Origin: a virus
Lineage: Duplodnaviria > Caudoviricetes
Strand: one strand, 5' to 3'
IMG/VR virus record: IMGVR_UViG_3300028888_000055
Length of the DNA stretch: 64,000 nucleotides
Shown: piece by piece, positions 8,860-38,722 of the stretch
Layout: every line of letters starts with the position of its first letter
Position numbering within the stretch: position 1 is the stretch's first letter
Program-made: the position numbers and the translations under genes
The notes under the pieces: model-generated
Database searches by the model: none
What the model saw: the letters and a program-made list of their open reading frames with translations, nothing else
Told to the model about the DNA's origin: nothing

Positions 8860-8860
8860 T

Positions 8861-8897
8861 ATTATTACATAGGAGAGTAATTCTCCTATGTAATAAT
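8861..8897 (+). terminator. Perfect 16-bp hairpin, probable intrinsic terminator
   Basis: attattacataggaga-gtaat-tctcctatgtaataat immediately after the stop at 8859. Confidence 0.7.
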
Positions 8898-12728: not shown

Positions 12729-14150
12729 ATGATAGTAGCAAATTTTGTAACAAATCGCCCAACTATGAGCGAAACCCGCACATATGAGGATTTTTACAAG
12801 TTCCTCGGTGCAAAGCCTACTCGTCTCGGTGTTGTTTCGAGACTTTATCCCGAATTAACTGCTTCTTATTTAACTGAATCTTTAAGAAATATTTTCTACA
12901 TGGATTCTAAGTCAAATAACAAGTATAGAAACATCGACTCAATGTACTTTGAGTGGGAAGTAGAAACTAATTATATCAAACGTGTTGAACTCGCAGCAAC
13001 TCCAGAAGGTGACGGCTGCAATGGTACTTCTATTTTCTTTGCTTTCAAAGAAAATTATTATCAGAAATACGACATTTGGAAGGCTGATAATACTTTCGAA
13101 CAGTTCCAGGTAATTTCTCGTCCTATCCGTAAGGCTGACGATTACTGGGTGCTTGAATGTCGTTTAATTACTACTGATCTTAACGATAAGATTGATCCTA
13201 ATGATTATCACGCTGGTGATACTACTCGCTTCCAGAGTAATGCAATGCCTGAATTACACGAAGAAGGCTATGTTAAGTATCAGTCTAACGTAGAACGTCA
13301 TCGTGGTTACATCTCAACTCACCGTGTTGATGATACTTATTCAGCTCTTTATAAGGCTCATGAAAATGTATTCATCTCGATTGGTAAGGGTGACGGTAAC
13401 GGTAAGATGAAAGAAACCATGTATAAGATGGATACTGTAGAGAAGAACCTTCTCCAGAACTTCTTATATGTTCGTAACAATGGTTTACTTTTCAACAAGT
13501 GTAATGTTGATAAGAATGGTAAGGCCACTATTAGCGATCCTGACACTGGTCGTCCTATCTACATTGGCGACGGTATTATTCCTCAAGTAGAACGCTTCGC
13601 TTCGAAGTATGTTTATAACACTCTTTCTGTTGATGCATTCCAAACTGCAATCAGCATGATGTGTCAGAAGGCTGAAAAGGCTGAAGGTAACAAGTTCGTC
13701 TTCATCTGCAACGAAAAGATGTGGCACGATATCCAGAGAACTCTTGGTTCTTGGCTTGCTAACTTCAAGACTTGTGGTACTTATTTGTGGTCTAAGGCCG
13801 CTAATGGCTATGTAAATGTTGGCGCAACATTCAATAGCTATGAATATGCAGGCAATACTATCTCATTCAAGGTAGATAGAACCTTCTCTCGTGAGTATGG
13901 TGACAACAAGGGCTTTGGTTTATTCTTAGACCTTACTGCTGACAAGACTAGTGGAGAACCTGCTATCGAGATGTTCTCGCTTAAGGGTGGCGACTTCATC
14001 AGCAATAAACTTCCTGGTGTTGGTGGTCTTGATGGTTTAAGCTCTGGCTTGGTTGCAAGTACAGTAGCAGGTAGTAAGCTCATTAACTGGGGTTACTCAG
14101 GTGTAGCTGTATTCAATCCTTACAGAAGCTTCATCTTAAGAGAGGCGTAA
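12729..14150 (+). CDS. Major capsid protein (473 aa)
   Basis: Size, position after the scaffold-like gene, strongly biased high-expression codon usage (aag/ttc/cgt/ggt), crAss-MCP-like motifs (GRPIYIGDGIIPQVERF; GVAVFNPYRSFIL) and a downstream terminator. No TAG. Confidence 0.88.
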   Translation: MIVANFVTNRPTMSETRTYEDFYKFLGAKPTRLGVVSRLYPELTASYLTESLRNIFYMDSKSNNKYRNIDSMYFEWEVETNYIKRVELAATPEGDGCNGTSIFFAFKENYYQKYDIWKADNTFEQFQVISRPIRKADDYWVLECRLITTDLNDKIDPNDYHAGDTTRFQSNAMPELHEEGYVKYQSNVERHRGYISTHRVDDTYSALYKAHENVFISIGKGDGNGKMKETMYKMDTVEKNLLQNFLYVRNNGLLFNKCNVDKNGKATISDPDTGRPIYIGDGIIPQVERFASKYVYNTLSVDAFQTAISMMCQKAEKAEGNKFVFICNEKMWHDIQRTLGSWLANFKTCGTYLWSKAANGYVNVGATFNSYEYAGNTISFKVDRTFSREYGDNKGFGLFLDLTADKTSGEPAIEMFSLKGGDFISNKLPGVGGLDGLSSGLVASTVAGSKLINWGYSGVAVFNPYRSFILREA

Positions 14151-14159
14151 TCACATAAT

Positions 14160-14205
14160 ATTAATAATTGGGGAATACTAAATTTCCCCAATTATTAATT
14201 TTTTT
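14160..14205 (+). terminator. Intrinsic terminator after MCP
   Basis: attaataattggggaa-tactaaat-ttccccaattattaat followed by a T run. Confidence 0.8.
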
Positions 14206-14218
14206 AAACTTGAATTAT

Positions 14219-14539
14219 ATGGCAAAATTAAATAAAGGGTTTTTCCTAAAAATCCCTTATGGTAATTAGACATATAAGGGACAGAGTGCTGCAGATGTAA
14301 GTGAACTTATTCAACTTATAGAAGATTTGCAAGAAGAATTAGCAGATTTAAAGACAAAAGCTGAAAATTTAGCAGATCAAGTTGAAGCACAAGAAGATAC
14401 AATCAATAACATTGTAACAGCTATAGATGCAGACGAAAATGGAGATTTAGGAGATGTTAAAAAGATATTTGATTTTCTTGATACAAATAAAGATAAAGAC
14501 TTAGCTCAAAACGACAGAGTCGGTTGGGTAGAGGATTAA
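14219..14539 (+). CDS. Small coiled-coil structural protein (106 aa)
   Basis: ATG 14219, single TAG at codon 17, in frame with track ORF 14327; ends VGWVED-TAA. Confidence 0.7.
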
Positions 14540-14576
14540 AAAACTTTTATATTAACTTTTTAATTTTTTAAATTTT

Positions 14577-15878
14577 ATGGCTTTAATACAATTTAAAAGA
14601 GGCGCTATTGCTCAAAGAGGCGATTCTGGTGCCAATGGTTTAGTTTACTTTGCAACAGATACTCAGGAACTTTTCATGGCTGATGCAACTGGTAACTGGA
14701 AGAAGTATGGTGATGGTGCTACACCAGTAACTGATGTTACATACTCTGAGGGTACATTTACTGTAACTAAGAGTCAAAATGGTACTCCGACTACATTTAC
14801 TATAACTCCTAGCGATTTAGGATTAGAAGGTGGTTCAGCTACTATTGCTTCTAAAAATGGAAATGTTGTAACTCTCAAGGCTGGCTTGGCCCAAAGCGAT
14901 TCTACTTTAGCTATTAGTAATAATTCAGGAACTGATATTACATTAGCTGCAGTCGCTTCGACTGGTGATGCCGAAGATATTACTGTAGATTCTGATTCTT
15001 ATGGCGGGTCATCAAACGTTACTAACCTTCAAGCCGCTCTGGATAATTTAGCTGATGCTGTTGATGCTGCTGCCGCTGGTGGTGTCCTTTCGCTTGCTGG
15101 AGGTACAGGTACTGGATCCGCTACAGGTGTAAGTGTAAGTGTTTCTCCAAATCAGTCTACTGGAGCTGTTACCTTAGGTGTAACTGTTGATGATAGTGCT
15201 CTTGATACTTATATTACAGGAAAGGTTGCTGGTTTATGGCATTTCAAGGGAACTGTTGCTACTGTAGCTGCTCTCGATAATGTTTCTAATCCTGCTGAAG
15301 GTGATGTATATCAAGTAACTGCTGATGGTAGTGAATATGCTTATAATGGCTCTGCATGGGTTGAACTTGGTACAGTTATGGATCTTTCTGCCTATACAGT
15401 AAAGAGCGTAGATACAACTGCTTCTAATGGTATTAACTTAAGCAATACTAATGGTGTAGTTGATGTAGTTGTAACTCCTGGTAGTGTTGCTGCTAATAAT
15501 ACTAGCGTTGTTCTTGGTGGGGATGTTTATACTGCAATCAATAATGCTATCACTGGTTTAGATAGTGATGCTTCTCTTTCTAATACTGATGCTGCTGCAG
15601 TAACTGGTGCTACAAAGACCTCTTATGGTAAGGCCCTTACTAAGGTCGTAATGTCTGACGGTGCTCTCCAAGATGTTGGCTCTAACGCTTCTGAAGAACA
15701 ATCGTTTGACTTGGCAGGTGCTGCAAATGCTGCTTATACTGATGCTGTTGCTCACACTGTTAATGGTAGAGCTTTATCAACTAATCCAACCTTAAGTGCT
15801 AACGATATTCAAGTCAAAACAACAGGCACTCCAACTGCGGGTTCTGTAAATGCATATCTTACTTGGATTGAAGCATAA
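14577..15878 (+). CDS. Ala/Thr-rich head fibre/decoration protein (433 aa)
   Basis: N-terminal IQFKRG...GLVYFATDTQELF, internal FKGTV...GDVYQV...EYAYNGSAWVELG fibre module; high-expression codon usage; no TAG. Confidence 0.7.
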   Translation: MALIQFKRGAIAQRGDSGANGLVYFATDTQELFMADATGNWKKYGDGATPVTDVTYSEGTFTVTKSQNGTPTTFTITPSDLGLEGGSATIASKNGNVVTLKAGLAQSDSTLAISNNSGTDITLAAVASTGDAEDITVDSDSYGGSSNVTNLQAALDNLADAVDAAAAGGVLSLAGGTGTGSATGVSVSVSPNQSTGAVTLGVTVDDSALDTYITGKVAGLWHFKGTVATVAALDNVSNPAEGDVYQVTADGSEYAYNGSAWVELGTVMDLSAYTVKSVDTTASNGINLSNTNGVVDVVVTPGSVAANNTSVVLGGDVYTAINNAITGLDSDASLSNTDAAAVTGATKTSYGKALTKVVMSDGALQDVGSNASEEQSFDLAGAANAAYTDAVAHTVNGRALSTNPTLSANDIQVKTTGTPTAGSVNAYLTWIEA

Positions 15879-15898
15879 TCCAATTTTACAATATAAAA

Positions 15899-15930
15899 AA
15901 TAAGGGGGAATTATACTCCCCCTTATTATT
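15899..15930 (+). terminator. Hairpin terminator
   Basis: aataaggggga-attatac-tcccccttatt. Confidence 0.7.
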
Positions 15931-15955
15931 ATTAATCTTTTAATTTAAATTTACA

Positions 15956-17275
15956 ATGAGTTTAGTTAAATTTGTTAAGGGCGACACTACAAGTAATAGT
16001 AGTACATATACAAGACAAGGAACGGGTAATATAGAATTTGACTCAACAACTAAGAAAATATACCTTGATGGTATGGATTATACTGGTGAGGTTGAAGATG
16101 AATTATTAGAAAACTCAAATAATCCCGTTTCTTCTAGTGCACTTTATGAAGTTATTACACAAAATGAATTAACTACAGCTGCTGCATTAACTGAACATGA
16201 AGACGCTATTTCCGATATAAATACTGCTTTAAATAATAAGCAGGATGCACTTACGTTTGACACAACCCCTACTACAAGCAGTACTAATCCAGTAACCTCA
16301 GGTGGTATTAAGACATATGTTGATAATAATTCTCCTTTAAAAGTTACTATCACTTATAATCAAGTTGCTGGTGCGGAGGCTTACTTATCTGACAAAAAAT
16401 ATAGTGTAATTAAAACAGCAATAACTAACGGTAGAGTTGTCAAACTTTATTATAATAATAAAGAGTTCGATCTTAAAGCTATTGATTCAACTGAAGTTAC
16501 CTTTGAACGTAATGAAAATGACAATACTTATACTAGTATTAAAATAACAAATGTGAATCATGTTCAAGTAACAACTGGTACAACGCTTGTTAGTGGCACT
16601 AATATCAAGACTGTAAACAGTAATTCATTGTTGGGAAGTGGAGACATATCACTAGACGCAGACAATCTTTCAATGACTACTGCTGATCCTAATGGTAACT
16701 GGGATGCTAATGATAGTATAGAAGATGCTGTAATTGCAAACAGTAATGCCATTAATGATTTAGACAGTAACAAGCAAGATACTCTTGTAAGTGGTACTAA
16801 TATTAAGACCATAAACAGAAACTCATTGTTAGGCAGTGGAAATGTTCAACTTGACGGCAGCAACCTGATCTATACTGGAAGTGAAAGTTATAACTTACAA
16901 GCCAGTGATACGATAGACCAAAGTCTTGATACTCTTGATGAGATAACATACAACAAACAAGATAGATTAGTTAGTGGCACTAATATTAAAACTATAAATG
17001 ATCAAAGTCTACTTGGTAGTGGAAATTTAGATCTAAATCCTTTAATATTTATTACTTTTTGGACAATTGACCGACCTGTTTCACCTTCAAATAGTCAATA
17101 CTGGTATAATCCTGCACAAAATGAACTTTAGGTGTATAATGGGAGTACTTGGACATCAGTTACACTTAGTTAGCAAAAATTATATATACGCTTAGCAACT
17201 AATGAAATATATCGTTATGATGGTAGGGAAATGGTTCGAATGACTCTAAATCCAACTTCTATTGTAACTACATAA
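15956..17275 (+). CDS. Fibre protein with three LVSGTNIKTIN repeats (439 aa)
   Basis: Track ORF extended through 2 TAG to TAA 17273-17275. The extension (KLYIRLATNEIYRYDGREMV) resembles the C-terminus of 9375-11555 (VIYCNSFNNKLYRWNKNSETMV). Confidence 0.8.
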
Positions 17276-17317
17276 TAATATATAGGAAAAAAGTAAAGAC
17301 TAAATAAAATAAAACTA

Positions 17318-17698
17318 ATGGCAATAAAACAACTTAAAGACAGTACTGGTACCAATTTTTATCCTTATACAGAAGTAAATGCCATTGTTGATGCTGAAAC
17401 TATAAATAAAATTCCACAGGTAATAGGAACTTCTGCAGCTTCTGTCACCATTGATCCTTACAAATTCTATGACTTTGGAACAGTTTCACAATCAATGACA
17501 ATTGTGTTTAATACTTCTGCAGAGGTTAGTGGTTATATGAAAGAATATATGATAAGATTTGTTGCAGGAAATGGTTGTAATATTACATTACCTAATGGAA
17601 CATTATGGAGTGGGGGCTCTGCTCCCATATTTACTGCAACACATACATATGAAATTGATATTGTAAATGGGTGTGCTGTAGTAGGAGAGTTTTATTGA
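17318..17698 (+). CDS. Small fibre/adaptor protein (126 aa), paralogue of 19143-19820
   Basis: MAIKQLKDSTGTNFYPYT...EYMIRFVAG...ITLPNGTLWSGGSAP...YEIDIVNG-TGA. Confidence 0.75.
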   Translation: MAIKQLKDSTGTNFYPYTEVNAIVDAETINKIPQVIGTSAASVTIDPYKFYDFGTVSQSMTIVFNTSAEVSGYMKEYMIRFVAGNGCNITLPNGTLWSGGSAPIFTATHTYEIDIVNGCAVVGEFY

Positions 17699-17718
17699 TA
17701 TATAAACTTTTTTGAATT

Positions 17719-18930
17719 ATGCACGTATTAAGAAGACTATTATTGATGGTGAGAGAAGTTATAATTCCTCCAACACCAGGACACATACTTACTATACAAG
17801 GTGTAAATAGTATTGAATCAACTAATGTTCAATACTCTGCCATCTATGATAACTCACCAGTTAGTTCAGGTATGACTTGGTCAATTATCTCTGGATCTCA
17901 ATATGCCTCAATAGATAACTCTGGTGAAGTTATTATATTGTCTGGAGCTAATAACTCCACAGTGATTATACAAGTGTCATATTTAGGAATGACCGCAACT
18001 AAGACAATATCATTAACATATAAGTCAGGAACTACTTCACAAACTGAGACAACAACCACAACAGATCCTGAGACTGGAGAATAGACTACTAAAACAACTA
18101 CTACAACTACCAATCAAGATGGTTCTTCAATAACTACTACAACAACTGTAACTACTGATGAGAATGGTGATGTAACAGGAAGTAGTGAAACTGAAACTAA
18201 TGTTGCAGTTGATGGTTCATCATCAACAACTACTACTAATTACGATGAGGATGGAGATCCGACATCAGGAACTAATAATACTATTGATACATTAGGTAAC
18301 TCTAATACCCAGGAAGTTGTATATGATGAAAATGGCAATACTACTGTAACATCATATATTATTGATACTACAGGCAATGAACAAGGAACTGGTGAAACTA
18401 TTACAGGAACAGGTGTTAATACTGAATTCATCCCATTTGATGGAACTTCGGGATTTGAAATGCATATACGATTCTATTCAAGAAAACAAGACCAACCAAA
18501 TCCACCAATCGTTACTGATACTGAGGATACTAGTTCAAATTATCACTTTACTATTCTTTGTGCTAAAGATCCTCGTTCACCATATCCTGGATTCCATATT
18601 CGTTGGACATTATCTAGAACAAATTATAATAGTGGAAACCTTGTATTAGGATATAGGGGTAGAACAGGTAGTTCAAAAAATCAGTCTCTGGCAATATCAA
18701 AAAATAATGATATGTATGATTTTACTATTACTTATGATCCTGAACTTAAGAAATATCCAAGTAAATTTAGATGTGTTGATAATTTAAATGGTGGAGCACT
18801 AGTTACATTAAATCTTGATTTTAATGCGATTAATTATGAATGTACATTAGGTTATAATATAAATCAACAAGGTCAACCATATCGTTACTCTAATTTAACT
18901 ATATACGAATTTAGTATTAATAAATTATGA
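17719..18930 (+). CDS. Ig-like plus Thr-rich repeat protein, putative receptor-binding/adhesin (403 aa)
   Basis: Track ORFs 17719-18084 and 18460-18930 are in one frame, joined by a single TAG. TWSIISGSQYASIDNSG Ig-like domain followed by TTTT-D/N-x-DG hairpin repeats. Confidence 0.75.
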
Positions 18931-19052
18931 ATTGCGTAAGAAGGCAATTATTAATGATAGAAAAGGCTAAGATAGATTTACTAGTGAACCTAATGGAGTT
19001 ACATTTGAATTAGGTACATTTACAAATCAATAAAATAGCCCACCAACATTAA
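18927..19052 (+). pseudogene. Probable remnant of a paralogue of 17719-18930
   Basis: ATGA-coupled 41-aa ORF MNCVRRQLLMIEK... echoes MHVLRRLLLMVRE and then degenerates. Confidence 0.35.
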
Positions 19053-19142
19053 GCATGGAGGTTATTGATTTTAACGTACATAAATTATAAGATTCATAAA
19101 AATAAAAATTATTCATAGGACAATTATTAATATTAAGTGAGT

Positions 19143-19820
19143 ATGGCAAGAAAACAACTTAAAGATAGTGCTGGTGTAGACTTTTACCCGTATACCGATT
19201 TAGAGAGTGTTATTGATGAAAGTAATAACACATTAGCATCAATATTATCTGAAAAACAGGATACGTTGGTTAGTGGGACTAACGTTAAGACAATAAATAG
19301 CGCCTCCCTTTTAGGGAGTGGCAATATTGCGATTAACGGAGGCACATTAGCCTACACAGGTGTTGACTTGTATGACACGGTAACGGGGGGAACTGTTGAT
19401 GATGAAATTGATGCGTTAGATGCAAGGAAGGCGAGGGAAATAACCTTCACAAAAAAGACGGGTAGTACGTCAATAACATTTACATCGTCATCGCAAATAT
19501 ACGGACGACGAGTGTACTGTCTTTCTTCAAATGCTACCACTTGGCAGGCGATAAACTCTTTAACGTTTAACACGGGTTCGTTCAATACAGTGCAATGGAC
19601 TCAAATAACTCCTGCTATTGGGGGAACATTGCCTGCGGTTGGCGATAGGGTGTCGGAGTATTACTGCATATTCTTTGCAGGAGTAAACGATATGCCAATC
19701 ACTTTCCCCTCCAATATAAAATGGGAGAATGGTGAGAAACCCACAATAAAAGCAAATGATTTTTGCGAACTTGTAATAAGAAATGGTATTGCATCACTTA
19801 GGAGGACGATAATACAATAA
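19143..19820 (+). CDS. Fibre/adaptor protein with atypical codon usage (225 aa)
   Basis: MARKQLKDSAGVDFYPYT, one KQDTLVSGTNVKTIN repeat, C-terminal ITFPSNIKWENGEKP; many ACG/GCG/GGG codons; no TAG. Confidence 0.8.
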   Translation: MARKQLKDSAGVDFYPYTDLESVIDESNNTLASILSEKQDTLVSGTNVKTINSASLLGSGNIAINGGTLAYTGVDLYDTVTGGTVDDEIDALDARKAREITFTKKTGSTSITFTSSSQIYGRRVYCLSSNATTWQAINSLTFNTGSFNTVQWTQITPAIGGTLPAVGDRVSEYYCIFFAGVNDMPITFPSNIKWENGEKPTIKANDFCELVIRNGIASLRRTIIQ

Positions 19821-19889
19821 AATAAACAACGAGGCCTAGCGCATTTTAACTAAAATTAATTATTTAATACTTTAAATATATATTGTAAT

Positions 19890-20702
19890 ATGCAAACATT
19901 AAAAAAAGGCAGTAAAGGTAATGATGTAAAGAAACTTTAGGCATTACTAAAAGTGACAACTGACGGCTTCTTTGGTCCTAAAACAGAAGCTGCAGTTAAA
20001 CAATTTCAAAAAGATAAAGGCTTAGAAATTGATGGTATCTGTGGTCCCAAGACATGGGCTGCTTTAGGCGTAAGTACAGAACCAGTTAATAATTCTAAAG
20101 TAGTAGATCCTAGTGTAATATATGCCCCATTAAAGCATTGTATTACTAGTACTCCTAACAGAAATATTAAATATATTGCTATTCACTATACAGCTGGTGC
20201 AAGTTCAGCTCCTGGTCGTGCAATAGGGATGAAAAATAGTTGGGAAAAATCAAGACGTGCAAGTGCAGATTTTGGTATTGATGATAGGGATATTGTTCAA
20301 TTCAACCCTGACTTGAAAAACTATAAATGTTGGAGCGTTGGAGATAAGAAGAATCCCTATGGCGGTGGTGGTAGCTTATATGGCATCGCAACTAATGGCA
20401 ACACAATATCTATAGAGATTTGCTCTAATTTAAAACCTGGGTATAGTGCTTCAAAAGTCAATCACGAAGGATGGTATTACACTGATGCAGCACTAGCGAA
20501 TGCAATAAAGTTAGTTAAAATCTTAATGAAAAGATTTAACATACCTGTCGAACGTGTAGTTCGACACTATGACATTAGTGGTAAAATTTGCCCAGGAATT
20601 GTTGGTTGGAATAATCATACTCTTTATGATAAAAATGGCAATGCATTAAAAACAAAAAATAATTCCAGAAAGTGGGAAGAATTTAAAAAGAAATTAATAT
20701 AA
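19890..20702 (+). CDS. Endolysin: PG_binding_1 domain plus N-acetylmuramoyl-L-alanine amidase (Amidase_2) (270 aa)
   Basis: LKKGSKGNDVKKL[TAG]ALL...DGFFGPKTEAAVKQFQ...DGICGPKTW; amidase Zn motifs IAIHYT, ISIEIC, VVRHYD..GKICPG. Confidence 0.9.
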
Positions 20703-20704
20703 TA

Positions 20705-20736
20705 TTTGTTTATATTTTTATTATTTTATAATTTTG
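20705..20736 (+). promoter_or_regulatory. Complete Bacteroidetes promoter TTTG-N20-TAATTTTG
   Basis: TTTG at 20705-20708 and TAnnTTTG at 20729-20736, spacing 20 nt, upstream of ATG 20786. Confidence 0.7.
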
Positions 20737-20785
20737 CATTATATATCCAAAGATTTATATATAAATTTAAATTACAAATGAAATA

Positions 20786-21646
20786 ATGACAATGGAAAAA
20801 AATTTAATTGTTTTAAGAAGCGTATACGGTAAAGTAGGATAGATTTACTACATTCAGCCAGTAAAAGATCCTAAGACTGGTCGTTTTCCTGATTGCGTCA
20901 GGAGAGTAAATAGTATGGGTGACATGATTATGTCAGACGAAGATAGAAATTCTGGTAAGGTTTTAATTCCAGAAAATAGAGTATTTGAGATTCAAGATGG
21001 TATTCAATTTGATTTGGAAGATCCATATCAGAAAGCAGAATGGGAATGTATTCGTTACGCTCCTATTATAGCCCCTTCTAGAGACGCTCGTGACAGTCAT
21101 GGTAATTTACTTATCGACGGTGAGATTGCAGAAGGTAAAACTAATGCTCGTTATGGTATTGCTGAACTTTATGTAGAAGCTCCTGGTGTAGAAGTAACTA
21201 AGAAAGTTAGTAAAACTAAACAAATCTTCGATGCTCAATCTTATATCTTTAATGATACTAAGGGTGCAGAAGGACGAGTACTTAAAGCTCGCTTGTTAGG
21301 TAAGAATATGCGTAATGCTCCTGACTCAGAAGTAACAGAATACTTACTTAATATCGCATCCAAAGATCCTAAACGTATCATAGACCTTTATACAGGTACA
21401 GATATGTCTTTACGTTTGCTCTTAATAGAAGCACGCGAAAAACATGTTATTGTTGTTAAAAATAAAGTCTATGTTTATGGAGACGATATTGTTTTAGGTA
21501 TCTCTGACGATGCAGTAATCGCTTTCTTAAAGGATCCAAAGAATGCTAAACTTCTTGAACTTATAAAGAGAGATACTTATCCTGAGCTCGAGGAAGACAC
21601 TGAGGAAACTCCTAAGTCTAAAACCAAAGAAGCTAAGAAAAAATAA
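20786..21646 (+). CDS. Conserved crAss-like capsid-module protein (286 aa)
   Basis: ATG 20786 (or 20792), one TAG, in frame with track ORF 20915; basic C-tail. Confidence 0.75.
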
Positions 21647-21660
21647 TAATTATTTATATT

Positions 21661-22677
21661 ATGACCGCAAGACAAGTATATGAAGCAATGCTTGTGGAGC
21701 TAAACAAAACAGAGGCTCCCAGCTTGTTGTTGGAAGACTTTAATTATTTCTTCAATAAAGCTATTTCCCAATATATAAATTTACACTATAATATTTATGA
21801 TACTAGTCAACAAACTACAGATGATTTAAGAGTTTTAAAAGCAACTGCTGTTCTTAAACCAGTTAAATTGGAAGACGAAAATAACAATAATAAATATGGT
21901 GTAAAGACTAGTAATTCTTTATATAGTAATATATGGGAAGTAGAACTACCAGAAGATTATTTACATATACTAAATTGTATATGCGAATATAAAGTTAAGA
22001 AGCGTTTTAAATGTTATAATGCAGGTGAGTTATGGGCGCAACCTGCTTCTAGACTTACTTCTGATATGTGGTCGTAGGTTATCAACAATTTCTATATGCG
22101 CCCATCATATAGAAACCCATATTACTTTATCCATAACGTCAATCCTGTAAGAGAGGATGAAGGTTATTCTTCTGTTCAAGTTCCTACTAATCCTTATTAG
22201 GAAGCTAAAGAAGGACAAAGCAATTTAGGAACTGGTACAGACCCTGATGTAGTTGTTAAGGTAGAGAATGATATAGAAAAGATAGAACCAACAGGTTTAT
22301 CTAGAATCCTTCATACTCTTGAAAGCACAGAAAGGGAGGACCAAGTAGAACATTATCCAACCATAAGATATGGCAATCCCTCACAAGTCCGAATGGAGAT
22401 TCGGTATGGGAAGGATGATGGGATATTTGAATTGGATAAAGTTTATGTAGACTATTTAAAGACTCCGCAACATATTAGATTAACTCAAGAACAAATAGAT
22501 TTAACTGAAGACACATCATAGATCTTGGAATTTCCAGATTATGTTTGTCAAGAGATAATAAATGGGCTGGTACGACTCGTCATGGAAAATGCGAGTGATT
22601 AGAGATTATAGACCCACATGGGTATAAATACAACTGTTGCCACGCCAGGCCAGCAACAGGAATCTAAACAAAATTAA
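21661..22677 (+). CDS. Putative tail ring / head-tail connector protein (338 aa)
   Basis: Read through TAG to TAA 22675-22677. Motifs EDFNYFFNKA, LPEDYLH, VDYLKTP and LEFPDYVCQEII resemble crAss ring (tail tubular-like) proteins. Confidence 0.65.
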
Positions 22678-22682
22678 GAAAT

Positions 22683-23879
22683 ATGTTTAATTTTACAACC
22701 ACAACATTGATCCATTCAAGAGATCAATTCGAAGCTAATCCAAACGAAACTAATCAAGTTTTTCGTGTAAATGGTGTTAATCTTTTTAAGAAAGATAATG
22801 TTGTAGCTATCTACAGAAGCCGTTATGTAGACCCTTTAAACGGTAAACTCGAAGTAGTTGTTCCTACAGGCGAAAAATCTGACAGATACAGATTGAAGTT
22901 CTATCTCCGTCGTTCTGGTGATAACAACTCTTACTACTCTAACGATTTCGTATTCAAAGGCAAAGAATTTGTTTACGAATGGACAGGCAAGCAGGACACT
23001 GCTGAAAAGGTAGCTAAGCTTATTCATAAGATTCAGAGACTTTATGGTGATATCTATTTAAAGGTTTACGTTGATGATGAATCTGGCAAGCTCGTATTCG
23101 AAAGCGATAACTACGGTTTGTTTACCACTGCATCACTTGAAAAGTGGGTAGAAACTGAACCAGATTGCTGTGTTTACAGAGAACCAGGTCATTGGGAAGT
23201 TATCGATGAAATTACTGAAGAAGATCCTGTACAGAAGGATGGCCGCGAAAATTGCAGCACTACTACAGACAAGGAATTTTATGAACTTACTGTAGAATCT
23301 GAAGGCAAACAGCTTAAGATTACTAAGTGTATTAATGGCGTAGGTACTTACTGGCAGATTATGAAGGATCTTCGCTTACCAACTATGGAAAATAGCCGTC
23401 CTTGGAACATCGTTGCTACTCAGCAAGAAATGCCTATCCCAGGAAACAAGTATGTACAGTATACTTTACATTATGTATCTTGTCGCGGTATCCTCGGTGG
23501 TTCAGCTGTAGGTGAAGTAACTCACTCGAAGACTACTCACGTATTCTTTGTACCTGCTGACTGCTGCTGCGAAGGCCTTGATGGAGAATTCCAAGCTGCT
23601 TTGAAGGAAGCTTTCGGTGATGACATTATTGAAGAAGCTCCACACGATGATCCAGTTCAGCAGCCATATCTTCAGGATACAATTGATATGAAGGCTGAAT
23701 CGGCTACTTATACTGCTAAAGAAACTAGTGATGAGAATTCTGAAGGTGGTGAAGGTGGTAACAGTACTGGTGGAAATTCAGAACCAACTAATGGTGGTGG
23801 CACTACAGAACCAACCGAACCAGGTAATCCTGCAGATCATTCAGACAATCCAACTGAACCAAAACCAGAAAATCCCTAA
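22683..23879 (+). CDS. Abundant structural protein, putative auxiliary capsid protein (398 aa)
   Basis: MCP-like codon bias, no TAG, low-complexity E/G/P/T C-tail, followed by a terminator. Confidence 0.6.
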   Translation: MFNFTTTTLIHSRDQFEANPNETNQVFRVNGVNLFKKDNVVAIYRSRYVDPLNGKLEVVVPTGEKSDRYRLKFYLRRSGDNNSYYSNDFVFKGKEFVYEWTGKQDTAEKVAKLIHKIQRLYGDIYLKVYVDDESGKLVFESDNYGLFTTASLEKWVETEPDCCVYREPGHWEVIDEITEEDPVQKDGRENCSTTTDKEFYELTVESEGKQLKITKCINGVGTYWQIMKDLRLPTMENSRPWNIVATQQEMPIPGNKYVQYTLHYVSCRGILGGSAVGEVTHSKTTHVFFVPADCCCEGLDGEFQAALKEAFGDDIIEEAPHDDPVQQPYLQDTIDMKAESATYTAKETSDENSEGGEGGNSTGGNSEPTNGGGTTEPTEPGNPADHSDNPTEPKPENP

Positions 23880-23904
23880 TCTAAAAAGATTAATTTAAAT
23901 AAAC

Positions 23905-23940
23905 AAGGCGGTGTGCTAGAATAAGCCGCCGCCTTCTTTT
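23905..23940 (+). terminator. GC-rich hairpin terminator
   Basis: aaggcggtg...cgccgcctt followed by ctttt. Confidence 0.75.
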
Positions 23941-23951
23941 AATTATAAAGT

Positions 23952-24632
23952 ATGGTATATTCAAAGTTAGCATCTGCAATTTATAACGATATAGTATCGG
24001 GTTTATAGGGCTACACTTCGACTCCCACATTATCTTTGGAGTAGTTAGAAGATGATATTGTAGATGAAAGATTAGCCTTAATAAAAGAGTATTCTTTAAA
24101 AGGAATTATTTAGAAAAACGATCTGCTACGAGCAATTAATTGTATTCCAGTAGATTGTAAATCTATTGAAAACTGCGATGCTTGTTCAGGAGATAATTTT
24201 GAAGGTACTCCAACTATGCATTTTGAAATGCCTCCAATATTAACTGAATTCGGAGGAGGCATTGAGTACATTGGGTCTGCAGATATGCAACAACCCTTCT
24301 TATGGTATACTAATCCTTCAGTGATGCGATACCATAAATATAGAAAAAGAAACAAGAATAGACCTTATGTCTATATAAATATGGCACCTAATAGTAATAA
24401 AATGTATGATTGCTATGTTTATAATGCTCCATTCTTAAAAAGAATATCTGTATTAGGTATTTTTAAAGATGAGCGACTGCTTAAGGAATTCGGATGTGAC
24501 TGTACAGACGAAGATGCAACACAGTCTTCTTTTATGAATGCCGAGATTAAAGATAGAGTAATATAGAAAAAAATCAAATATTATAGATAGCTTGCTACTG
24601 GACCTAGACCAAACGACCAAGTACCTAAATAA
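23952..24632 (+). CDS. Putative tail ring protein (226 aa)
   Basis: MVYSKLASAIYNDIVSGLQG...LEQLEDDIVDER...PRPNDQVPK-TAA; includes track ORF 24216. Confidence 0.65.
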
Positions 24633-24634
24633 TT

Positions 24635-25324
24635 ATGGAAGCTTTTTATTCTGCCTATACATAGGCTAATTTATTATATGGACTTGAAATGAGTCCTGAA
24701 GACTTTGAGGAAATAGGACTTATTGCTTGGAATAGAATAGGCAATAAGCAAACTAGATTATATAGATACTCTATAGATGTAGACTGTTCTACAAAAGCAG
24801 TAACTCTTCCTTGTAATTGTGATGAAATAGAAGCTGTGACTTTACCTTATGAAGATTGGAATTATGTTACCAATACAACAGCTAATGGGGATTATGATTC
24901 TCAATTTACTGAGAATTATATAGAAATAAGAAAACACGAATAGGACCCTTTTTATATACATGGAAGATATGTAAAATATGAGAGAGTGGGAGATACTCTT
25001 TATTTAGACAAAGACTGTGGTTTAATTAATATTTTATACAAGGGAGTTGAAATGGATGACGACGGTCTTCCCTTGTTAAATAATAAAGAAGTTGATGCCA
25101 TAGCATGTTTTTGCGCTTTTGTAGTATTACATAAAAGAGCCATAGCATCTAATAATTCTGCATTATTACAGTAGGCTTAGTTATTAGAAACCAGATGGGC
25201 AAAGATGTGTGATGCGGCACGAGTAGCACCAAGTATGAGTCAGAATGACTTCAATAGAATACTTGATGCTAAATCATCTTGGAATAGAAAAATATTTAAT
25301 AAATCTTATAAACCACTTAAATAA
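24635..25324 (+). CDS. Putative tail ring / tubular protein (229 aa)
   Basis: Track ORFs 24689 and 24986 joined across TAG; LPCNCDEIEAV and ILYKGVEMDDDGLPLL motifs. Confidence 0.65.
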
Positions 25325-29300: not shown

Positions 29301-29878
29301 ATCCTTTGGATGATGGTTATGACGGAGCATAGGTAATCGATGGGGATTATAATCAGATATGGGAAGATCTAGATATTTACTACAATCCAGCATATAATTG
29401 TTATTAGTATGATTTATCTAAAGAGAATTTTATGCGTATGCTTACAAAGTCTGTTAATAATAGTTAGAATTTTATACTGGATTGGGCAGGGAACTGTTGG
29501 CAAATCCCTGCTTTAATTAATAGTTTTATGACAGTAGAAGAAGCTAAAACTACTTCTGGTTCAGTACTTGATACATATTCAAATAATTATATAGTACTTA
29601 GAAACTTAAATACTGTTTCTTCCACTTGGACAAAAGGATCAGATACCTCGGGCCCAAATTTTGCTAAAATTAATCTAGGATTTAGAGGATGTAATGTAGC
29701 CTACACTACTCCAAAAGTAGAAAGAAAAGTTTCAACCTTAGACTTTTTTAAAGCAATAAATGGCAAAATAAAGGAAATAGTAAACTTATACAATCATAAT
29801 AAGGTAGCTATGAATGGAGGATATAACCCACCAGAAGAACCAGAAGTAGAACCTGAAGTAGAACCAGAAACCACCTAA
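26309..29878 (+). CDS. Tail stabilisation/muzzle-like protein, N-terminal part plus large variable region (1189 aa)
   Basis: NTFKGGLVMDLNP...NALNATFITNNGNELMLQNDMGN...PVGIKEHGGIIYI...GQIGSFPYP. Track ORFs 26453, 28190, 29093 and 29528 share a frame; ends TAA. Confidence 0.75.
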
Positions 29879-29897
29879 AATTTAATATTGATAACTT

Positions 29898-32800: not shown

Positions 32801-34994
32801 TGAAGGATATGGTAGAACTACATCAGACCAACATAGATTATTAAGTAAAGAATATCCAACTGAAAGAACTGATTTCAGTACCAGGATAATGTACTCTGAA
32901 TTAGGAGTAAATAATGCAATATCTAATAATCTAAGAATTTTTAAATCTGGAAATCATCAAGATTATTCTACAAACTATGGACAACTAGTTAAACTTATAA
33001 CTTAGAATAGTTATTTAGTGTGCATATTTGAACATGGTATAGGGACAATAGAAATCAACGAACGTGCTGCCATAAATCAAACTAAAACAGAACAAGTTTA
33101 TATTAAATCTGTAAGTGTATTGCCAGAAAAGATGTCTATGCTTCATCTAGATTTTGGTAGTCAATGGCCTGAAAGTGTGATTTCTACTCCTACTGGAATA
33201 TACGGTGTAGATACTGTAGCTAAAGTTATTTGGAGATTAACTGTTAATGGTGGAGTTGAAACTTTATCTGATTTTAAAGTACAAAATTTCTTAAATAATA
33301 ATATAACATTCTCTCTTCAAGAAACTTCTCCAATTGTAGGTATTAGAAATGTAAAAACTCACTATAACGCCTTTAAAAAAGATGTAATATTTACATTTTA
33401 TGATGATATAAATGCTGTAGAGGATAAAGCCTGGAGTCTATGTTATAATGAAGATACAAATGTTAAGACATTTACAACTTTCTATTCTTGGCTTCCTTCT
33501 TACTCTGCAAATATTGATAATGTATTCTTTACATTTGATAGGTAGGCATCGAGAGAACTAGCTATGTTATATGATTACTAGGGCAAATTAAAATTGTCTA
33601 GTGATGATAATTATTCTTACTCTGATCTTCATCTTTTTAATAAAGATGCTGCTAGTATAAAGGATAGTAATATATGTAAAGCACATATTACTTATACTGG
33701 AGCCTCAGATTATGAATTAGCTATAGACAATAAGTATATTTCTGATAAAATATTTAGTTTAGAAAAAGAAGACGAAAATAATTATTATACATTGACTTTA
33801 TATGAAAAGGGCTTAAATTCTGATGTTTATCATATCCCTATTATTGTAAAAGAATACTAGACTGATAATAGAGGACAAAGGATGGTATTAAGAACACTAA
33901 ATACTACCTTAATGATATGTACAGAATCATATCGTACTAAATTATAGAATTACATATGGAAGCATGGTTAGGCAGGGTTAATGTAGCTTGATACAGAAAT
34001 AAAACCAACAAACTGGTATGGTAAATAGCATCCATTTGAATTTGAATTTGTAGTAAATAAGGATATTTATAGTCATAAAATATTTGAAAACCTAATTATT
34101 TTATCAAATAAAACAAAACCAGAGTCCTTACATTTTGAAGTTGTTGGAGAAGTTTATACCTTTGCAAAAGATAAACTAAATATGTTCTATCGCCAGGAAG
34201 CTACCAAATAGCTATACTAGTATTACGGTTACGATATTACATATAATAAAGAATATCTTAAATTAAATCCTGAACATAGATGGGATAAGTATAGTGGATA
34301 TTTTGATAAATCTATAATATTTCCATTAAGAGTTACTAGACAGGATTCCTTAAATGAAGTTTATGATTATTATCAAAAAATGACTTCTAATTCTCTGGAT
34401 TATCAATCTTTATCTGGAGCAGAAATTACCTATGATAAACTATTAAATGACTTTAATGTAAATGTTCATATCCCTGTATATCCTTTAGGAGGACACGAAG
34501 AAGTTAAGATAACTCCTGAACAATATGAATATTATAAGAAAACAAATGTATAGGTAAGAAAAGAAGGCGATAATTATTATAAGTTAGTACCTTATGGTAG
34601 AAGATTAGGAAATGCTCAATATAATGAAGATAGATGGCTGATTCAAATTCCATCTATAAACTACGTTGAGAAAAATGAAAATAAAGAGGCTTGGATTAAT
34701 GATGTTCCGCCTTTGAATGTTTACTATAATCCTTTACCAGAAGACGGTCCTATTAATGATTATATTGATGATTCCGAGCAAACTAATCCTTTCCCAGATA
34801 AAAATATATTTATAAATAATGATGGTACTTCTTTATATAAATATGATAATATAAAGCAAATAAATATATCTGACTGGGGAAATTATAAATAGACTCGCTT
34901 AAGGGATAAATATATGAAGATAAAAATTAGATATGATGGGGAAGATTTAGCTGTTATTGCCGCTATTGTAACCCTATTTTAGAAAAGCGCTTAA
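29898..34994 (+). CDS. Tail stabilisation/muzzle-like protein, main part (1698 aa)
   Basis: SYDGTVNLI...PKLINTRF, NRLFLGN, EIYRFGIVFI, FRGDCFI, FGSQW.ESV, WYGKQHPFEFEFVV, RLRDKYMKIKIRY. Track ORFs 31071, 32028, 33018 and 33594 share a frame. Confidence 0.8.
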
Positions 34995-35004
34995 TAAATA
35001 AATT

Positions 35005-36129
35005 ATGGCAAATACAGACGGAGGATCAGCTATTAGTGAAGCAACGAAAAGTTTAGGATCTAATATGCAAAAGTTCGGCATGATGGCCGACGCTGTTGGA
35101 AGTTTTATTCCATCTAACTATAATATGGGGAAATATGGAAAAGGTAAACTAGCAAGCTAGTTGGATAGTACCTATGATACTATATCTAATGCAGCTATGT
35201 CATTAGGCCCATATGGAATGATAGCAGGTGGAGTAATGAAAGGCCTTGGGTTACTTAATAAAGGTTTAGGAGCTATTGGCGGTGGCACAGACTAGATGAC
35301 CACCACTGACGCTATCTTAAATAGTAGTTTTTTAGGATGGACTCCTATAGGAATGATTAATGGTTTCGGAGGTGCTAGAGCTAGCAATTATAATAGAGAT
35401 GATGAAATTGACGCTAATTCTGGAGGTTCATATCAAGGTTTTCTTTCTGCGGAAGATGAGGCAAGTGAAAAAGCTGGTAAAAAATATGGTCTTTTCTCAA
35501 AAGGAGCATTAAATAAAGCAAATGAATTAATCGATAAAGTATCCGTATAGCAGATACAATTAGGAGCAATTGAAGATACTAATAAGTTAAATTAGAATAT
35601 TGCACAGAACAATGCTCCATTTATTTCTATGCGATCTTAGATTGCCAACGATGGTGGTTTACAATATGCTAGAATAGGAAAAGAAGGTATGACTTTTGAT
35701 AAAGCAATGGTGTTTGCTAAACATGTATTATAGCGAAGACCAGTTAGAAAGTTGGAAAAAGGCGATAAGAATAGTAAAGTAAAGAAGAATACTCCTTACT
35801 CTTTACCCGAATTACCTTTACTGAAACAAGGAGGCTCCTTTAACGTAATTCCTGATGGTTCTCTTCATAAAAATAAACATCATCTTGATGAAATTGATGA
35901 GAAATTTGAGGATGTTACAACAAAGGGTATACCCGTTATTACAGAACAAAATGGAGAAGTAATACAACATGCTGAAGTAGAAAAAGAAGAAATAATCTTC
36001 AGATTAGAAACAACTAAGAAAATTGAAGAATTAATGAAAGAAAATACTGATGAGGCAGCTATTGAAGCAGGAAAACTTCTCGTTAAAGAGATATTACATA
36101 ATACTAAAGACAACGCTAATATTATATAA
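35005..36129 (+). CDS. Putative virion cargo/ejection protein (374 aa)
   Basis: Gly-rich hydrophobic N-half; KQGGSFNVIPDGSLH...GIPVI...AEVEKEEIIF. Track ORFs 35296 and 35752 joined. Confidence 0.65.
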
Positions 36130-36131
36130 TT

Positions 36132-37601
36132 ATGCCAAATCGTTATACATCACCTTACACAGAATACGATAAATTGTTTGAACCTTATACAGATGACCAA
36201 GAGCGTTTGTAGGACTTGTTAGCGCAAATGAATTATCCTGAAATTGTATAGGCTGGTTCTGAATAGGATTATGGGCAGCGATTTAAGTGGGGAAAATATG
36301 GATTGGGAAACTTATATCAAAGAAACCATACTATGCCAAATGGTACAGAATATACCGCCGAAGATAATGCACATTTTCTTATTATCCCCTTTATGCGCCC
36401 TTAGATAGGTTATGAACCAAATACTCTAAAGGCACCAAGTGCATAGTAGCGCACAACATATGAAGAATTTCCACACGCATATTTATTCAACAATGGCATG
36501 CAAAACTATGCAGAATCTCTGTAGGATTTTCTAGTATCTGGCAGAGAACAAGATTATTTAAATCCTTTCACAATGGAAGGATTCACGCATGGACTTTTTA
36601 GTGATAATACCATAAATGCCAAAGAAAAGCAAAAAAGGTTTAAGATCACTAAAAAATTAACAAAAGATTTAGGATTAGAAAATCTACTAGTAGATTTTAA
36701 TGGTGATAAACAAAAGGATTATGTTATTCCAGGTTTTAATAATGATCATGGTCCAGTTGGCGGACAATATTGGGTAGAAGCTTATCGAAGAGGAAAAATA
36801 AATTAGGAAACATTGGATAAAGCTCTTAAAATAGTTTCAGATTATCATCAAAATGGAAGAAAAGACGCTTATTATGATGCGGCTTGGAAAGCTAATAAAT
36901 AGAATTATGCAGAGCAACTTCGTAAATTAGGTTTTACTGACGGAGGTGATTTAATAAGATTTGCAACGCCTACTTTAAGTATAATTAATTTTGTTGGAGA
37001 AAGTGGCAATATAATATCTACGAAACGTGAACTTGCTAAAAAAGAAAAAGAATTAGAAAAAGCTTATAAAAATAAAGAAATAACTAAAGATCAATATAAT
37101 AAAATCAAGAAACAATATGAACTTGCTAATAAATCTTTACACAAAAAAATACACGCCACTATTGGGAACGATTTTTCTAATGCAGTAAAAGAAACTAAAC
37201 AAGGAAATCTTAAACAAGCAGCTAAATCTGCAGGTAAAGGACTTCTCAAAGTAGCAGATTCTTCAGCAGGAGCAGGACAATCAGCAAGTAATATTATGTA
37301 GAATTTTATAGCAAATTAGCTTACTTAGGAAACTAAAAAAGCTATTAAGAAAGGTGTATACGATGCTACAGATTATGTTATGGATAAATCTCCCTAGTGG
37401 CTTAAAAATGCAAATAAGAAAGCTAATCCATATGCAAAGAAGGCAATAACATCTACATGGAACTGGATTCCTGAAGGCAGTTTCAAAGACGCTTTAAGAG
37501 ATAACAAATTAATGAGATTTGGACGTGATTGGGCTAAACGTTATGGTCTGTGGAAGAAAAACGGCGGTGTATTAAATATATAGGATATGTTAATTTATTA
37601 A
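36132..37601 (+). CDS. Hypothetical cargo protein with zincin-like EExxH motif (489 aa)
   Basis: Open with TAG=Q, including a TAGTAG at 36444-36449. YEEFPHAY...MEGFTH; C-terminal KKNGGVL. Confidence 0.65.
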
Positions 37602-37608
37602 ATTCTGT

Positions 37609-38268
37609 ATGGAAGAAAATTTTGATATTGAACTTGCTAAAGATGGTACTACTATAGAAAAAATTGACAATGAGACTTCTAGTTCTATAGATATCGAAAT
37701 TGGAAATAAAAAATATACAGTACAACTTGCAAAGACAGAAAAAGAAAAAGAAAAAGGTTTAATGGGTAAACAATCCTTACCAAAGAATGAAGGAATGTTA
37801 TTTATATATGATGAACCTCAAACAGTTGGTTTTTGGATGAAAGACACTCATATACCTTTAGATATTATCTTTATTGATGAAGACTGCGAAGTTATTTCTA
37901 TTTATAAAGCCAAGCCATTAGATAAAACCATTGTTGAAGAGGATGATGTAAAATATGTATTAGAAGTAAATCAAGATTCTGGTATAAAAGAGGGAGATGA
38001 GTTAGAGTACGATGAAGACCCTGATGAAGATTTACCTACTATGAAAGTTATAGGGCCCAATGGTGAAACTTAGATGGAACTTGAGGGTGGAGAAAGAATA
38101 TTTAGTAGAAAAAATACCAGAACTTTAATCAGAATGGCAAAAAGAGCTGAAGAATCTAATTCTGATACAGACTATAAACGATTAGGTAAAAAAATATTCA
38201 AATATATTGAAATACAAGATAATAGAGAGCCAGAATACGTAGAGTTAAAAACTGACTCCGATGATTAA
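37609..38268 (+). CDS. DUF192-domain protein with C-terminal extension (219 aa)
   Basis: KGLMG...GMLFIY...FWMKDTHIPLDIIFID...YVLEVN is the DUF192 signature. A single TAG joins it to MELEGGERIFSR. Confidence 0.8.
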
Positions 38269-38308
38269 TAATTATGATTAATTATTTTATCATAAAAATA
38301 ATTTTTTA

Positions 38309-38316
38309 TAAATTTG
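38309..38316 (+). promoter_or_regulatory. Bacteroidetes -7 promoter element (TAAATTTG)
   Basis: TAnnTTTG in the intergenic gap, 31 nt before ATG 38348. Confidence 0.55.
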
Positions 38317-38347
38317 TAGCAGTTTAACTGTTAAACATTATTTTATT

Positions 38348-38665
38348 ATGAGAATTGTAAACAAATACAGAAAATTTCAAGACGGTGGAGCTATGCCTCC
38401 CGAAGGTGCCCCTATGGAAGCTCCTATGGAAGCTCCAATGGAAGGAGCACCCGCACCTGAAGAAGGTGGCGATCCTTTAACACAAATCTTACAAGTTGCA
38501 GCTATGGCTTTGCAAAATCAAGACTGTGAAGCAGCTATGGCAGTATGCCAAGCTTTTATTGAATTAGCTCAAGGCGGACCTCAAGGCGGTGCTCCAGCAC
38601 CTGCACCAGAAGGTGAACCTACATTTGCTAGATACGGAGCTAAACTCGTAAGGGTTAGAAGATAA
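38348..38665 (+). CDS. Small Pro/Ala-rich protein with KFQDGG motif and APME x3 repeat (105 aa)
   Basis: Intact ORF with no TAG; has its own promoter and terminator. Confidence 0.8.
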   Translation: MRIVNKYRKFQDGGAMPPEGAPMEAPMEAPMEGAPAPEEGGDPLTQILQVAAMALQNQDCEAAMAVCQAFIELAQGGPQGGAPAPAPEGEPTFARYGAKLVRVRR

Positions 38666-38687
38666 ACTTAACTTTAAGGTTTATAAT

Positions 38688-38722
38688 AGGGGCTTATATG
38701 TTTAGCTATAAGTCCCTTTTAT
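38688..38722 (+). terminator. Hairpin terminator
   Basis: aggggcttata-tgtttagc-tataagtccct-ttt (one G:U pair). Confidence 0.65.

Follow-up and report, generated by a model that had tools for sequence, protein, structure and literature searches.

Why should the genes of a virion shell be spared a codon that most other late genes of the same phage use? This question is raised by the 64,000-nucleotide record IMGVR_UViG_3300028888_000055 (the whole stretch of DNA that was analysed, hereafter the window), in which TAG is read as glutamine (Gln). Between positions 12729 and 38722, an earlier note had singled out four genes that carry no TAG, each followed by a hairpin, and had proposed that both features together control virion stoichiometry. 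The four are the major capsid protein gene (MCP, 12729-14150), gene 14577-15878, gene 22683-23879, whose product is very probably an auxiliary capsid protein (AUX), and a conserved gene for a protein of 105 amino acids (38348-38665). The explanation that we favour, with a probability of about 0.68, is that expression-linked selection excludes a poorly decoded TAG from the shell genes, in addition to transcription signals older than the recoding.

The window corresponds to the block of late (virion) genes in a large gut crAss-like phage, whose TAG codons are read as Gln. Its long open reading frames (ORFs) all lie on the + strand, as do all the window features given below, and stay open only when TAG is taken as a sense codon. 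In the whole window, 291 in-frame TAGs were counted among 891 Gln codons, a share of 0.327. In standard-code orthologues, Gln was the residue that most often faced a TAG of the window (66 of about 165), with the same share as at CAA/CAG positions, and TAG was thus assigned to Gln. No tRNA gene was found within the window. In the closest complete relative, G001, which is about 85-87% identical in DNA to the window over most shared regions, a tRNA(CTA) gene is located at 126017-126091, at the head of the + strand late block; in a second complete relative, G002, it lies at 169864-169938 and likewise heads the late block. The early minus-strand genes, which are seen in these relatives only, almost all contain no TAG.

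These properties are those of the late TAG-to-Gln recoding that is already known (Ivanova 2014; Yutin 2021, PMC7886860; Borges et al., 10.1101/2021.08.26.457843; Peters 2022, PMC9523058): TAG is confined to the late virion strand, the early genes are TAG-free, a suppressor tRNA(CTA) is present in the closest complete relatives, and standard-code and recoded phages are close kin. The standard code, in which TAG is not a sense codon, was found in 70 of 82 related loci, and a quick tree of MCP requires the code to have changed at least 2-3 times. Related IMG/VR records are up to 160-190 kb long and have terminal repeats. This size and an MCP gene split by inserts fit the Zeta group, which is described as having genomes of 145-192 kb and many introns (Yutin 2021).

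On recount, the absence of TAG from the four genes proved exact. The numbers of TAG, CAA and CAG codons are 0/2/8 in MCP, 0/9/2 in 14577-15878, 0/4/10 in AUX and 0/8/0 in the 105-residue gene, that is, no TAG in 43 Gln codons. At the window-wide share the probability of this result is 4e-8, which becomes about 2e-3 once the choice of 4 from 35 genes is corrected for. When genes were taken by an independent criterion, namely that they precede an intergenic hairpin, TAG accounted for 1 of 44 Gln codons, against 290 of 846 elsewhere (Fisher 5e-7). The hairpins at 14160, 15899, 23905 and 38688 do stand directly after the four genes; they are clean, perfect stems of 11-16 bp with dG values of -16 to -20.5 kcal/mol, starting 9-25 nt past the stop codons. 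Of the roughly 24 strongest local hairpins (dG <= -16), 5 fall between genes, although intergenic DNA represents only about 2% of the sequence. The set of four was not complete, as a fifth intergenic hairpin (8865-8896, dG -20.4) follows the small membrane-protein genes 8327-8599 and 8599-8859 (1 TAG in 3 Gln codons), and TAG-free genes without a hairpin also exist in the window (17318, 19137, 25764 and 8327).

The product of 12729-14150 (473 residues) is the Crassvirales major capsid protein. Its residues 68-381 matched Pfam PF23898 (Crass_capsid) with 65.1 bits (cut-off 27) and an E-value of 5.4e-18, and its PHROG match was phrog_11589, major head protein; MCP and an endolysin were the only window proteins named by the PHROG and Pfam scans. 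A sequence search of the PDB gave no matches for MCP, AUX or the 105-residue protein. The terminator-like hairpin at 14160-14199 begins 9 nt past the MCP stop and consists of a 16-bp stem followed by a run of seven T (dG -20.5). It is wholly intergenic, the next gene beginning at ATG 14219 and not at 14168 as had been stated. Of 15 sampled relatives, both recoded and standard-code, 14 have a hairpin at this place after the MCP orthologue; the stem sequences vary with their pairing retained, and the hairpin of locus L075 is weak (dG -7.1). In close relatives, inserts of about 1-2.4 kb interrupt MCP at two fixed positions, equivalent to 12971-12972 and 13267-13269 of the window, where MCP is uninterrupted. 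These inserts (7426-8718 and 9013-10001 in L073, which corresponds to G001, and 5250-7613 in L075) fit the group I introns reported for Zeta MCP genes by Yutin 2021.

For the 398-residue product of 22683-23879, searches of PHROG and Pfam likewise gave nothing. An AlphaFold model was built from 15 orthologues (predicted local distance difference test score, pLDDT, of 66), and its best match in the PDB was 7qof_a (Foldseek E 4.9e-6, probability 1.0). Alignment of the two by VIA gave a Z score of 11.7 and a root-mean-square deviation of 4.5 over 252 residues (2-319 against 6-333), and the next-best structural matches were the D2-D3 domains of FliD (Z 6.5-6.9). The gp36 protein of phicrAss001 (PDB 7QOF) is an auxiliary capsid protein of 333 residues, present in 9 copies per asymmetric unit, equal to MCP, and its two-domain fold is made of a PH-like domain with an inserted FliD-like domain (Bayfield et al., PMC10172136). 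Since the 333-residue chain length and the FliD matches agree with this description, the protein was identified as being of the gp36 type, and on the basis of the model 22683-23879 very probably encodes the second shell protein.

AUX and gp36 have in common a full-length fold, a FliD-like middle domain and a position a few genes past MCP: the gene order in relatives is MCP, the 20786 orthologue, the 21661 orthologue and AUX, and in crAss001 gp36 comes after gp32. The two proteins differ by their sequences, which are about 12% identical, and by a disordered, acidic, Gly- and Pro-rich C-terminal tail of about 80 residues that AUX possesses in addition. A terminator-like hairpin (23905-23935, dG -19.5 to -22.7) begins 25 nt past the AUX stop and is followed by CTTTT. 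It is kept in 14 of 14 sampled relatives, whether recoded or not, with compensatory changes in the stem.

The gene at 38348-38665, which has no TAG in 8 Gln codons, is also conserved. According to the orthologue alignment, its 105-residue product is a viral protein, rich in Ala, Pro and Gly, largely disordered, with two invariant Cys residues and a basic C-terminus. The gene lies between a TAAATTTG motif, a possible promoter 39 nt upstream (38309-38316), and a hairpin that begins 22 nt past its stop (38688-38717) and is followed by TTTTATTT. Of 80 relatives, 60 have a TAnnTTTG motif in the 90 nt before the orthologue and 79 have a hairpin with dG <= -12 after it. The N-terminus of the protein (K-F-Q-D-G-G, 38348-38400) resembles that of a 616-residue protein encoded two genes downstream (K-H-Q-S-G-G, with Q encoded by TAG, 43576-43615). 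The F-Q-x-G-G motif is invariant across the 105-residue orthologues and may be a packaging or processing signal common to the 616-residue protein.

The depletion of TAG in these families is not restricted to the window. In a test that used one locus per recoded lineage (7 lineages) and, as background, the other late genes common to the locus, TAG accounted for 5 of 100 Gln codons in the MCP orthologues (31.9 expected) and for 5 of 71 in the AUX orthologues (22.5 expected); for each family, none of 200,000 simulations gave a value as low. For the 105-residue gene, a hand tally in a second collection of 80 loci gave about 15 TAGs in 176 Gln codons over 13 distinct, clearly recoded loci with backgrounds of 0.27-0.67; the counts are 0/9 in G001 and 0/10 in G002. 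The families of genes 21661, 23952, 24635 and 25324 have TAG above expectation across the recoded lineages. The expectation that orthologues in recoded relatives would be free of TAG holds as a depletion and not as an absolute rule, the avoidance being leaky in the most deeply recoded genomes (in MT835492, 4/23 for MCP and 4/17 for the 105-residue gene). This leakiness agrees with published proteomics, in which codes 11 and 15 give the same protein for one recoded crAss-like MCP and code 11 cuts a second one into two parts (PMC9523058).

The avoidance of TAG is accompanied by a more general codon bias. The TAG share per gene was correlated with the first principal component of codon usage, calculated with the Gln codons left out (rho -0.71, p 1e-5), and MCP, AUX and 14577-15878 were outliers on the second axis. 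MCP and AUX favour C-ending two-fold codons, CGT, GGT over GGA and AAG over AAA, and ATA, GGA and CTA are nearly missing from them; in MCP, GGA represents 1 of 37, ATA 1 of 26 and AAA 5 of 33 of the codons for their amino acids. The share of NNC codons is 0.48 in MCP (p 2e-16) and 0.40 in AUX (p 1e-7) against 0.19 elsewhere, and is raised in the 105-residue gene too (0.47, on just 15 codons, p 0.014). In standard-code relatives the same share is 0.43-0.60 for MCP and 0.35-0.52 for AUX, the neighbouring genes being at 0.14-0.40. The suspicion that the TAG share might simply follow general codon bias is thus partly borne out. GC content at third codon positions was rejected as the sole cause, as 14577 and 38348 are at background for this measure and owe their raised GC to amino-acid composition. 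Slow protein evolution was rejected as well: AUX is among the fastest-evolving families, with 23-50% identity across lineages, and is TAG-poor, while the TAG-rich families of 23952 and 24635 are better conserved (36-65%).

From these data, the following course of events may be proposed. The hairpins after MCP, AUX and the 105-residue gene, the promoter-like motifs and the host-like codon bias of MCP and AUX are found in standard-code relatives and were thus in place before the recoding. An amber suppressor tRNA would then have been gained in some lineages, and TAG would have spread to about one-third to one-half of the Gln codons in most late genes. Selection rising with the level of expression would have kept it out of the most heavily translated ones. 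As TAG needs a tRNA supplied by the phage, presumably in competition with host release factor 1 (RF1), it would act as the worst of the non-optimal codons. In this scheme, the high expression of the TAG-free genes, a role of the hairpins as terminators and a cost for the decoding of TAG are all inferred.

The design that had been proposed at the outset is a different one: TAG density, set gene by gene, would throttle the low-copy proteins, terminators would boost the mRNA of the high-copy ones, and the two layers would jointly set virion stoichiometry. It draws strength from the fact that the two shell proteins of highest copy number are among the products of the TAG-free genes with hairpins, from the residue of TAG avoidance that goes beyond general codon bias, and from the four families that are enriched in TAG across lineages. 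Moreover, Borges et al., who tested for TAG-preferring families only and found a few of them, proposed recoded stops as an extreme form of codon-based regulation. The assumption that all four genes are high-copy suits MCP and the gp36-type AUX; it is not supported for 14577-15878, where the absence of TAG belongs to the block as a whole.

However, when MCP, AUX, the 105-residue gene and the block 14219-20702 were set aside, the TAG share of the remaining 21 late genes was statistically uniform (0.36; chi2 30.6, df 20, p 0.06). Fibres, tail parts, cargo and giant polymerase-associated proteins are probably all represented among them, and the homogeneity of their TAG share, whatever their likely copy number, indicates that there is no grading by copy number. 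With a constant share of TAG, yield would drop with the length of the protein instead. By simple arithmetic, completion of the giant proteins with 45-56 TAGs would need a read-through of about 0.96-0.98 or better at each TAG, that is, a nearly complete one with an effect of a few per cent per codon. On this estimate, some three TAGs at background rate in MCP would cost about 5-15% of its output, and a span of roughly 50-100-fold in virion copy number would be out of reach. A loss of this size in the most abundant protein could nevertheless be visible to selection. Furthermore, the depletion is leaky in deeply recoded lineages, and hairpins and codon bias also exist in standard-code relatives; hairpins are ancestral, and the avoidance of TAG is part of a general bias seen there too. 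Neither the throttling of low-copy proteins nor the two-layer design is sustained by these results, and we regard designed dosage control as quite unlikely.

The codon data also bear on timing. MCP, AUX and the 105-residue gene could be written so as to be translated ahead of the phage suppressor and its companion tRNAs, or in their absence, so that shell protein would accumulate before the code switch; for MCP, a synthesis before the switch had been considered possible in the earlier note. In the accepted model (Borges et al.), early genes are TAG-free because they come before the switch. The tRNA genes of G001 (109982-115337, loci L089/L092; 126017-126091, L106) read GGA, AAA, ATA, TTA, ACA and GAA in addition to TAG, and five of these six sense codons are those that MCP and AUX avoid most strongly. 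The summed share of GGA, AAA, ATA, TTA and ACA is 0.14 in MCP, 0.18 in AUX and 0.26 in 14577-15878, whereas other genes of at least 100 codons have 0.38-0.64. The position of the 105-residue gene in a compact unit, between a promoter-like motif and a hairpin, would also suit an independent expression.

However, the early genes of G001 and G002 avoid TAG alone and contain GGA, AAA and ATA at background rates, so a pre-switch gene need not resemble MCP or AUX. Early genes retain an AT-rich codon usage, so that MCP and AUX resemble highly expressed genes rather than pre-switch ones; C-ending codons together with CGT and GGT are the classic mark of high expression. MCP has no promoter-like motif to itself; it is embedded in the late block and follows TAG-bearing genes directly (11599-12711, 4/18). 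Besides, the shell protein of a tailed phage is insufficient by itself and cannot assemble in the absence of the portal and the scaffold. Expression level accounts better than early synthesis for the codon choice of MCP and AUX, and the explanation by timing appears very unlikely.

A third possibility is historical: the TAG-free genes may have been acquired recently from standard-code relatives, or be too constrained, so that TAG would not yet have accumulated. The abundance of standard-code loci among the relatives and the repeated changes on the MCP tree, both given above, are compatible with such exchanges. For the three conserved families, the recurrence of the depletion in many separate recoded lineages is opposed to this view, as is the fast evolution of AUX, which stays TAG-poor. 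The window MCP is 87% identical in DNA and 99.6% identical in protein to that of locus L001, and the flanks show an equal DNA identity, which implies that synonymous sites have turned over and gives no sign of a recent swap. In addition, 8 of the 10 Gln codons of MCP are CAG, each a single transition away from TAG. As a general explanation, recent acquisition or constraint is most improbable; it is likely only for the block that contains 14577-15878.

Gene 14577-15878 is indeed a separate case, since its lack of TAG belongs to the whole block of lineage-specific fibre and endolysin genes at 14219-20702. The neighbours of this gene had been described as TAG-rich, which is untrue, as the block as a whole has 5 TAGs in 64 Gln codons. 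Without 14577 it has 5/53, against 286/794 (0.36) elsewhere (Fisher 3.5e-5), and at the block's own rate 0/11 in 14577 is unremarkable (P 0.34). The block, in which the endolysin was called by phrog_1493, is missing from 80 relatives and from the two complete genomes, where the 20786 orthologue is found about 1 kb downstream of MCP. It is perhaps a recent import from a standard-code phage, which is a reasonable guess; alternatively, it may be a module kept portable between genetic codes. IMG/VR searches for a donor with 14577, 17719 and 15956 gave no relatives, a result that weighs against the import.

The product of 14577-15878 is a fibre-like protein of 433 residues, rich in Ala, Gly, Ser and Thr and specific to this lineage. 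No orthologue was found in 80 related loci, G001 or G002, and a search of 5.8 billion proteins yielded only partial, N-terminal homologues. The leads obtained from the ESM Atlas were Phage_tail_C, Phage_fiber_rpt and an Mtd_N head fibre; matches to PDB sequences were only Fab-like and were judged to be due to chance. A role as a head fibre would fit its place after MCP. Its share of the five phage-tRNA codons is the third lowest among genes of at least 100 codons, a codon bias that hints at a fairly high expression; its NNC share is not raised. The hairpin at 15899-15927 (dG -16.9), with a GGGGG/CCCCC core, begins 20 nt past its stop and is followed by a weak T tract.

Several observations weigh against expression-linked selection as the complete explanation. 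When both codon axes were regressed, the four genes remained below their predicted TAG content (4.2 expected and none observed, P(all zero) 0.01), and among all disfavoured codons TAG is thus, by a small margin, the one kept out most strictly. The 105-residue gene displays little general codon bias, its share of the five phage-tRNA codons being 0.48 (on only 105 codons). The preference of the window MCP for CAG is not common to its relatives. The set of phage tRNAs was read from G001 and not from the genome of the window itself, and the match between MCP/AUX codons and host tRNAs is only presumed. Lastly, hairpins in G001 and G002 also follow some TAG-bearing genes, namely those at the ends of operons and G001 123585-125573 (10/29), and some TAG-free late genes of these genomes have neither a hairpin nor a codon bias.

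A general link between hairpins and the absence of TAG was rejected: the association is not significant in G001 and G002, because operon-end terminators follow TAG-rich giant genes there. The link is restricted to the three conserved families (MCP, AUX and the 105-residue gene). The plain TAG-free late genes of the two genomes have 10-14 Gln codons each (G001 130700-131617; G002 13960-15189, 175198-176100 and 176363-177001). Several of them sit near the head of the late block and the suppressor tRNA, and may reflect timing.

The hairpins probably act as terminators or as 3'-stabilisers, as judged from their sequence and position. As they are also present in standard-code relatives, they predate the recoding and are unrelated to the change of code. 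A good T tract follows the hairpins at 14160 and 38688, a moderate one (CTTTTAATT) that at 23905 and a poor one that at 15899. In phage T7, the terminator T-phi is located after the capsid gene 10. Likewise, a strong hairpin stands here just past MCP inside a long co-directional late operon, an arrangement expected to enrich or stabilise capsid mRNA; in contrast to T-phi, some of the present hairpins have weak T tracts and all are known from sequence alone. Two further hairpins, at 43603-43646 and 45533-45576 (dG about -20), were considered as extra terminators and discarded, as they are inside coding sequence and the conserved N-terminal K-H-Q-S-G-G motif spans the first. Both occur within the initial 60-180 nt of giant cargo genes, immediately past the stop of the preceding gene.

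The motif TAnnTTTG, which resembles the -7 element of Bacteroidetes promoters, occurs 4 times in the 1277 nt of intergenic DNA of the window, where about 0.8 would be expected. Three copies stand 39-57 nt before genes 8327 (motif at 8277), 20786 and 38348, the second (20729-20736, 57 nt upstream of 20786) being a possible promoter of the unit that extends from 20786 to AUX; the fourth, at 19000, is 137 nt before 19137. This arrangement suggests promoter-to-hairpin units at 8277-8896, 20729-23935 (with AUX as the last gene) and 38309-38717.

The preference of MCP and AUX for C-ending codons, CGT and GGT, their avoidance of ATA, GGA, AAA and CTA, and the family-wide conservation of this bias are in keeping with translational selection as known in phage structural genes. 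The difference is that the disfavoured set includes here a reassigned stop and coincides with the codons of a relative's phage tRNAs. In the T4-type picture to which Borges et al. refer, the codons of late genes suit the tRNAs of the phage; MCP and AUX show the reverse. A tentative and rather unlikely interpretation is that the phage uses two dialects, the shell genes being translatable on host tRNAs alone and the other late genes needing the phage tRNAs and the amber suppressor. If this split were functional, it might shield shell synthesis from a limited supply of phage tRNAs or from competition by RF1, or order the assembly; it would then amount to a partitioning of resources by phage tRNAs, opposite to the usual view in which these tRNAs serve highly expressed late genes. 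The fact that the phage tRNAs and the codons of the shell genes appear ill matched deserves attention across the family.

The core of the favoured explanation, expression-linked exclusion of TAG from shell genes, is already in print. Yutin 2021 remarked on a Zeta MCP without reassigned stops, and a 2026 preprint (10.64898/2026.08.21.746148) described a TAG-free MCP in an amber-recoded Segatella crassvirus and ascribed it to host codon adaptation and efficient translation. In both cases, as here, the reassigned codon is missing from MCP but present in other late genes; these are remarks on single genomes and are not accompanied by statistics. Earlier studies of recoding dealt with TAG-preferring families (lysis genes, tail tube) and with timing, whereas the present results concern a family-specific depletion inside the recoded block and an older codon bias. 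What is new is the statistics at the level of families, the extension to AUX and to the 105-residue gene, and the links with ancestral hairpins and with phage-tRNA codons.

If selection of this kind is at work, the reassigned stop acts here like an ordinary, strongly disfavoured sense codon, which tempers models in which every in-frame TAG is regulatory. The cost of each TAG in MCP is then a measurable prediction. In practical terms, late genes of a TAG-recoded crAss-like phage that contain no TAG and precede a conserved hairpin are good candidates for the genes of the most abundant virion proteins. This cue led to AUX, which sequence searches had missed, and it also flags the 105-residue protein as one to look for in virion proteomes.

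Some minor observations were made in the relatives. Minus-strand ORFs rich in TAG (e.g. 11/16 and 15/20) were noticed inside early regions that are otherwise TAG-free, one of them among tRNA genes (G001 112774-113934, 83884-85215 and 88828-89805; G002 146153-147925 and 173767-174711). They may be homing-endonuclease or intron ORFs, which are known to prefer the recoded stop (TGA, in Agate phages; Borges et al.). G002 also possesses a tRNA with the anticodon TTA, similar to an ochre suppressor (141349-141421), as well as a site that ARAGORN called with an anticodon of four bases (ttca, 157148-157224); TAA still appears to serve as a stop codon in this genome. Finally, a call resembling a transfer-messenger RNA was made by ARAGORN in the phage tRNA cluster (L092 800-1134, about 114250-114584 in G001), with the tag peptide GGTLNIACWP; the call may be spurious or may represent a tRNA with an intron.

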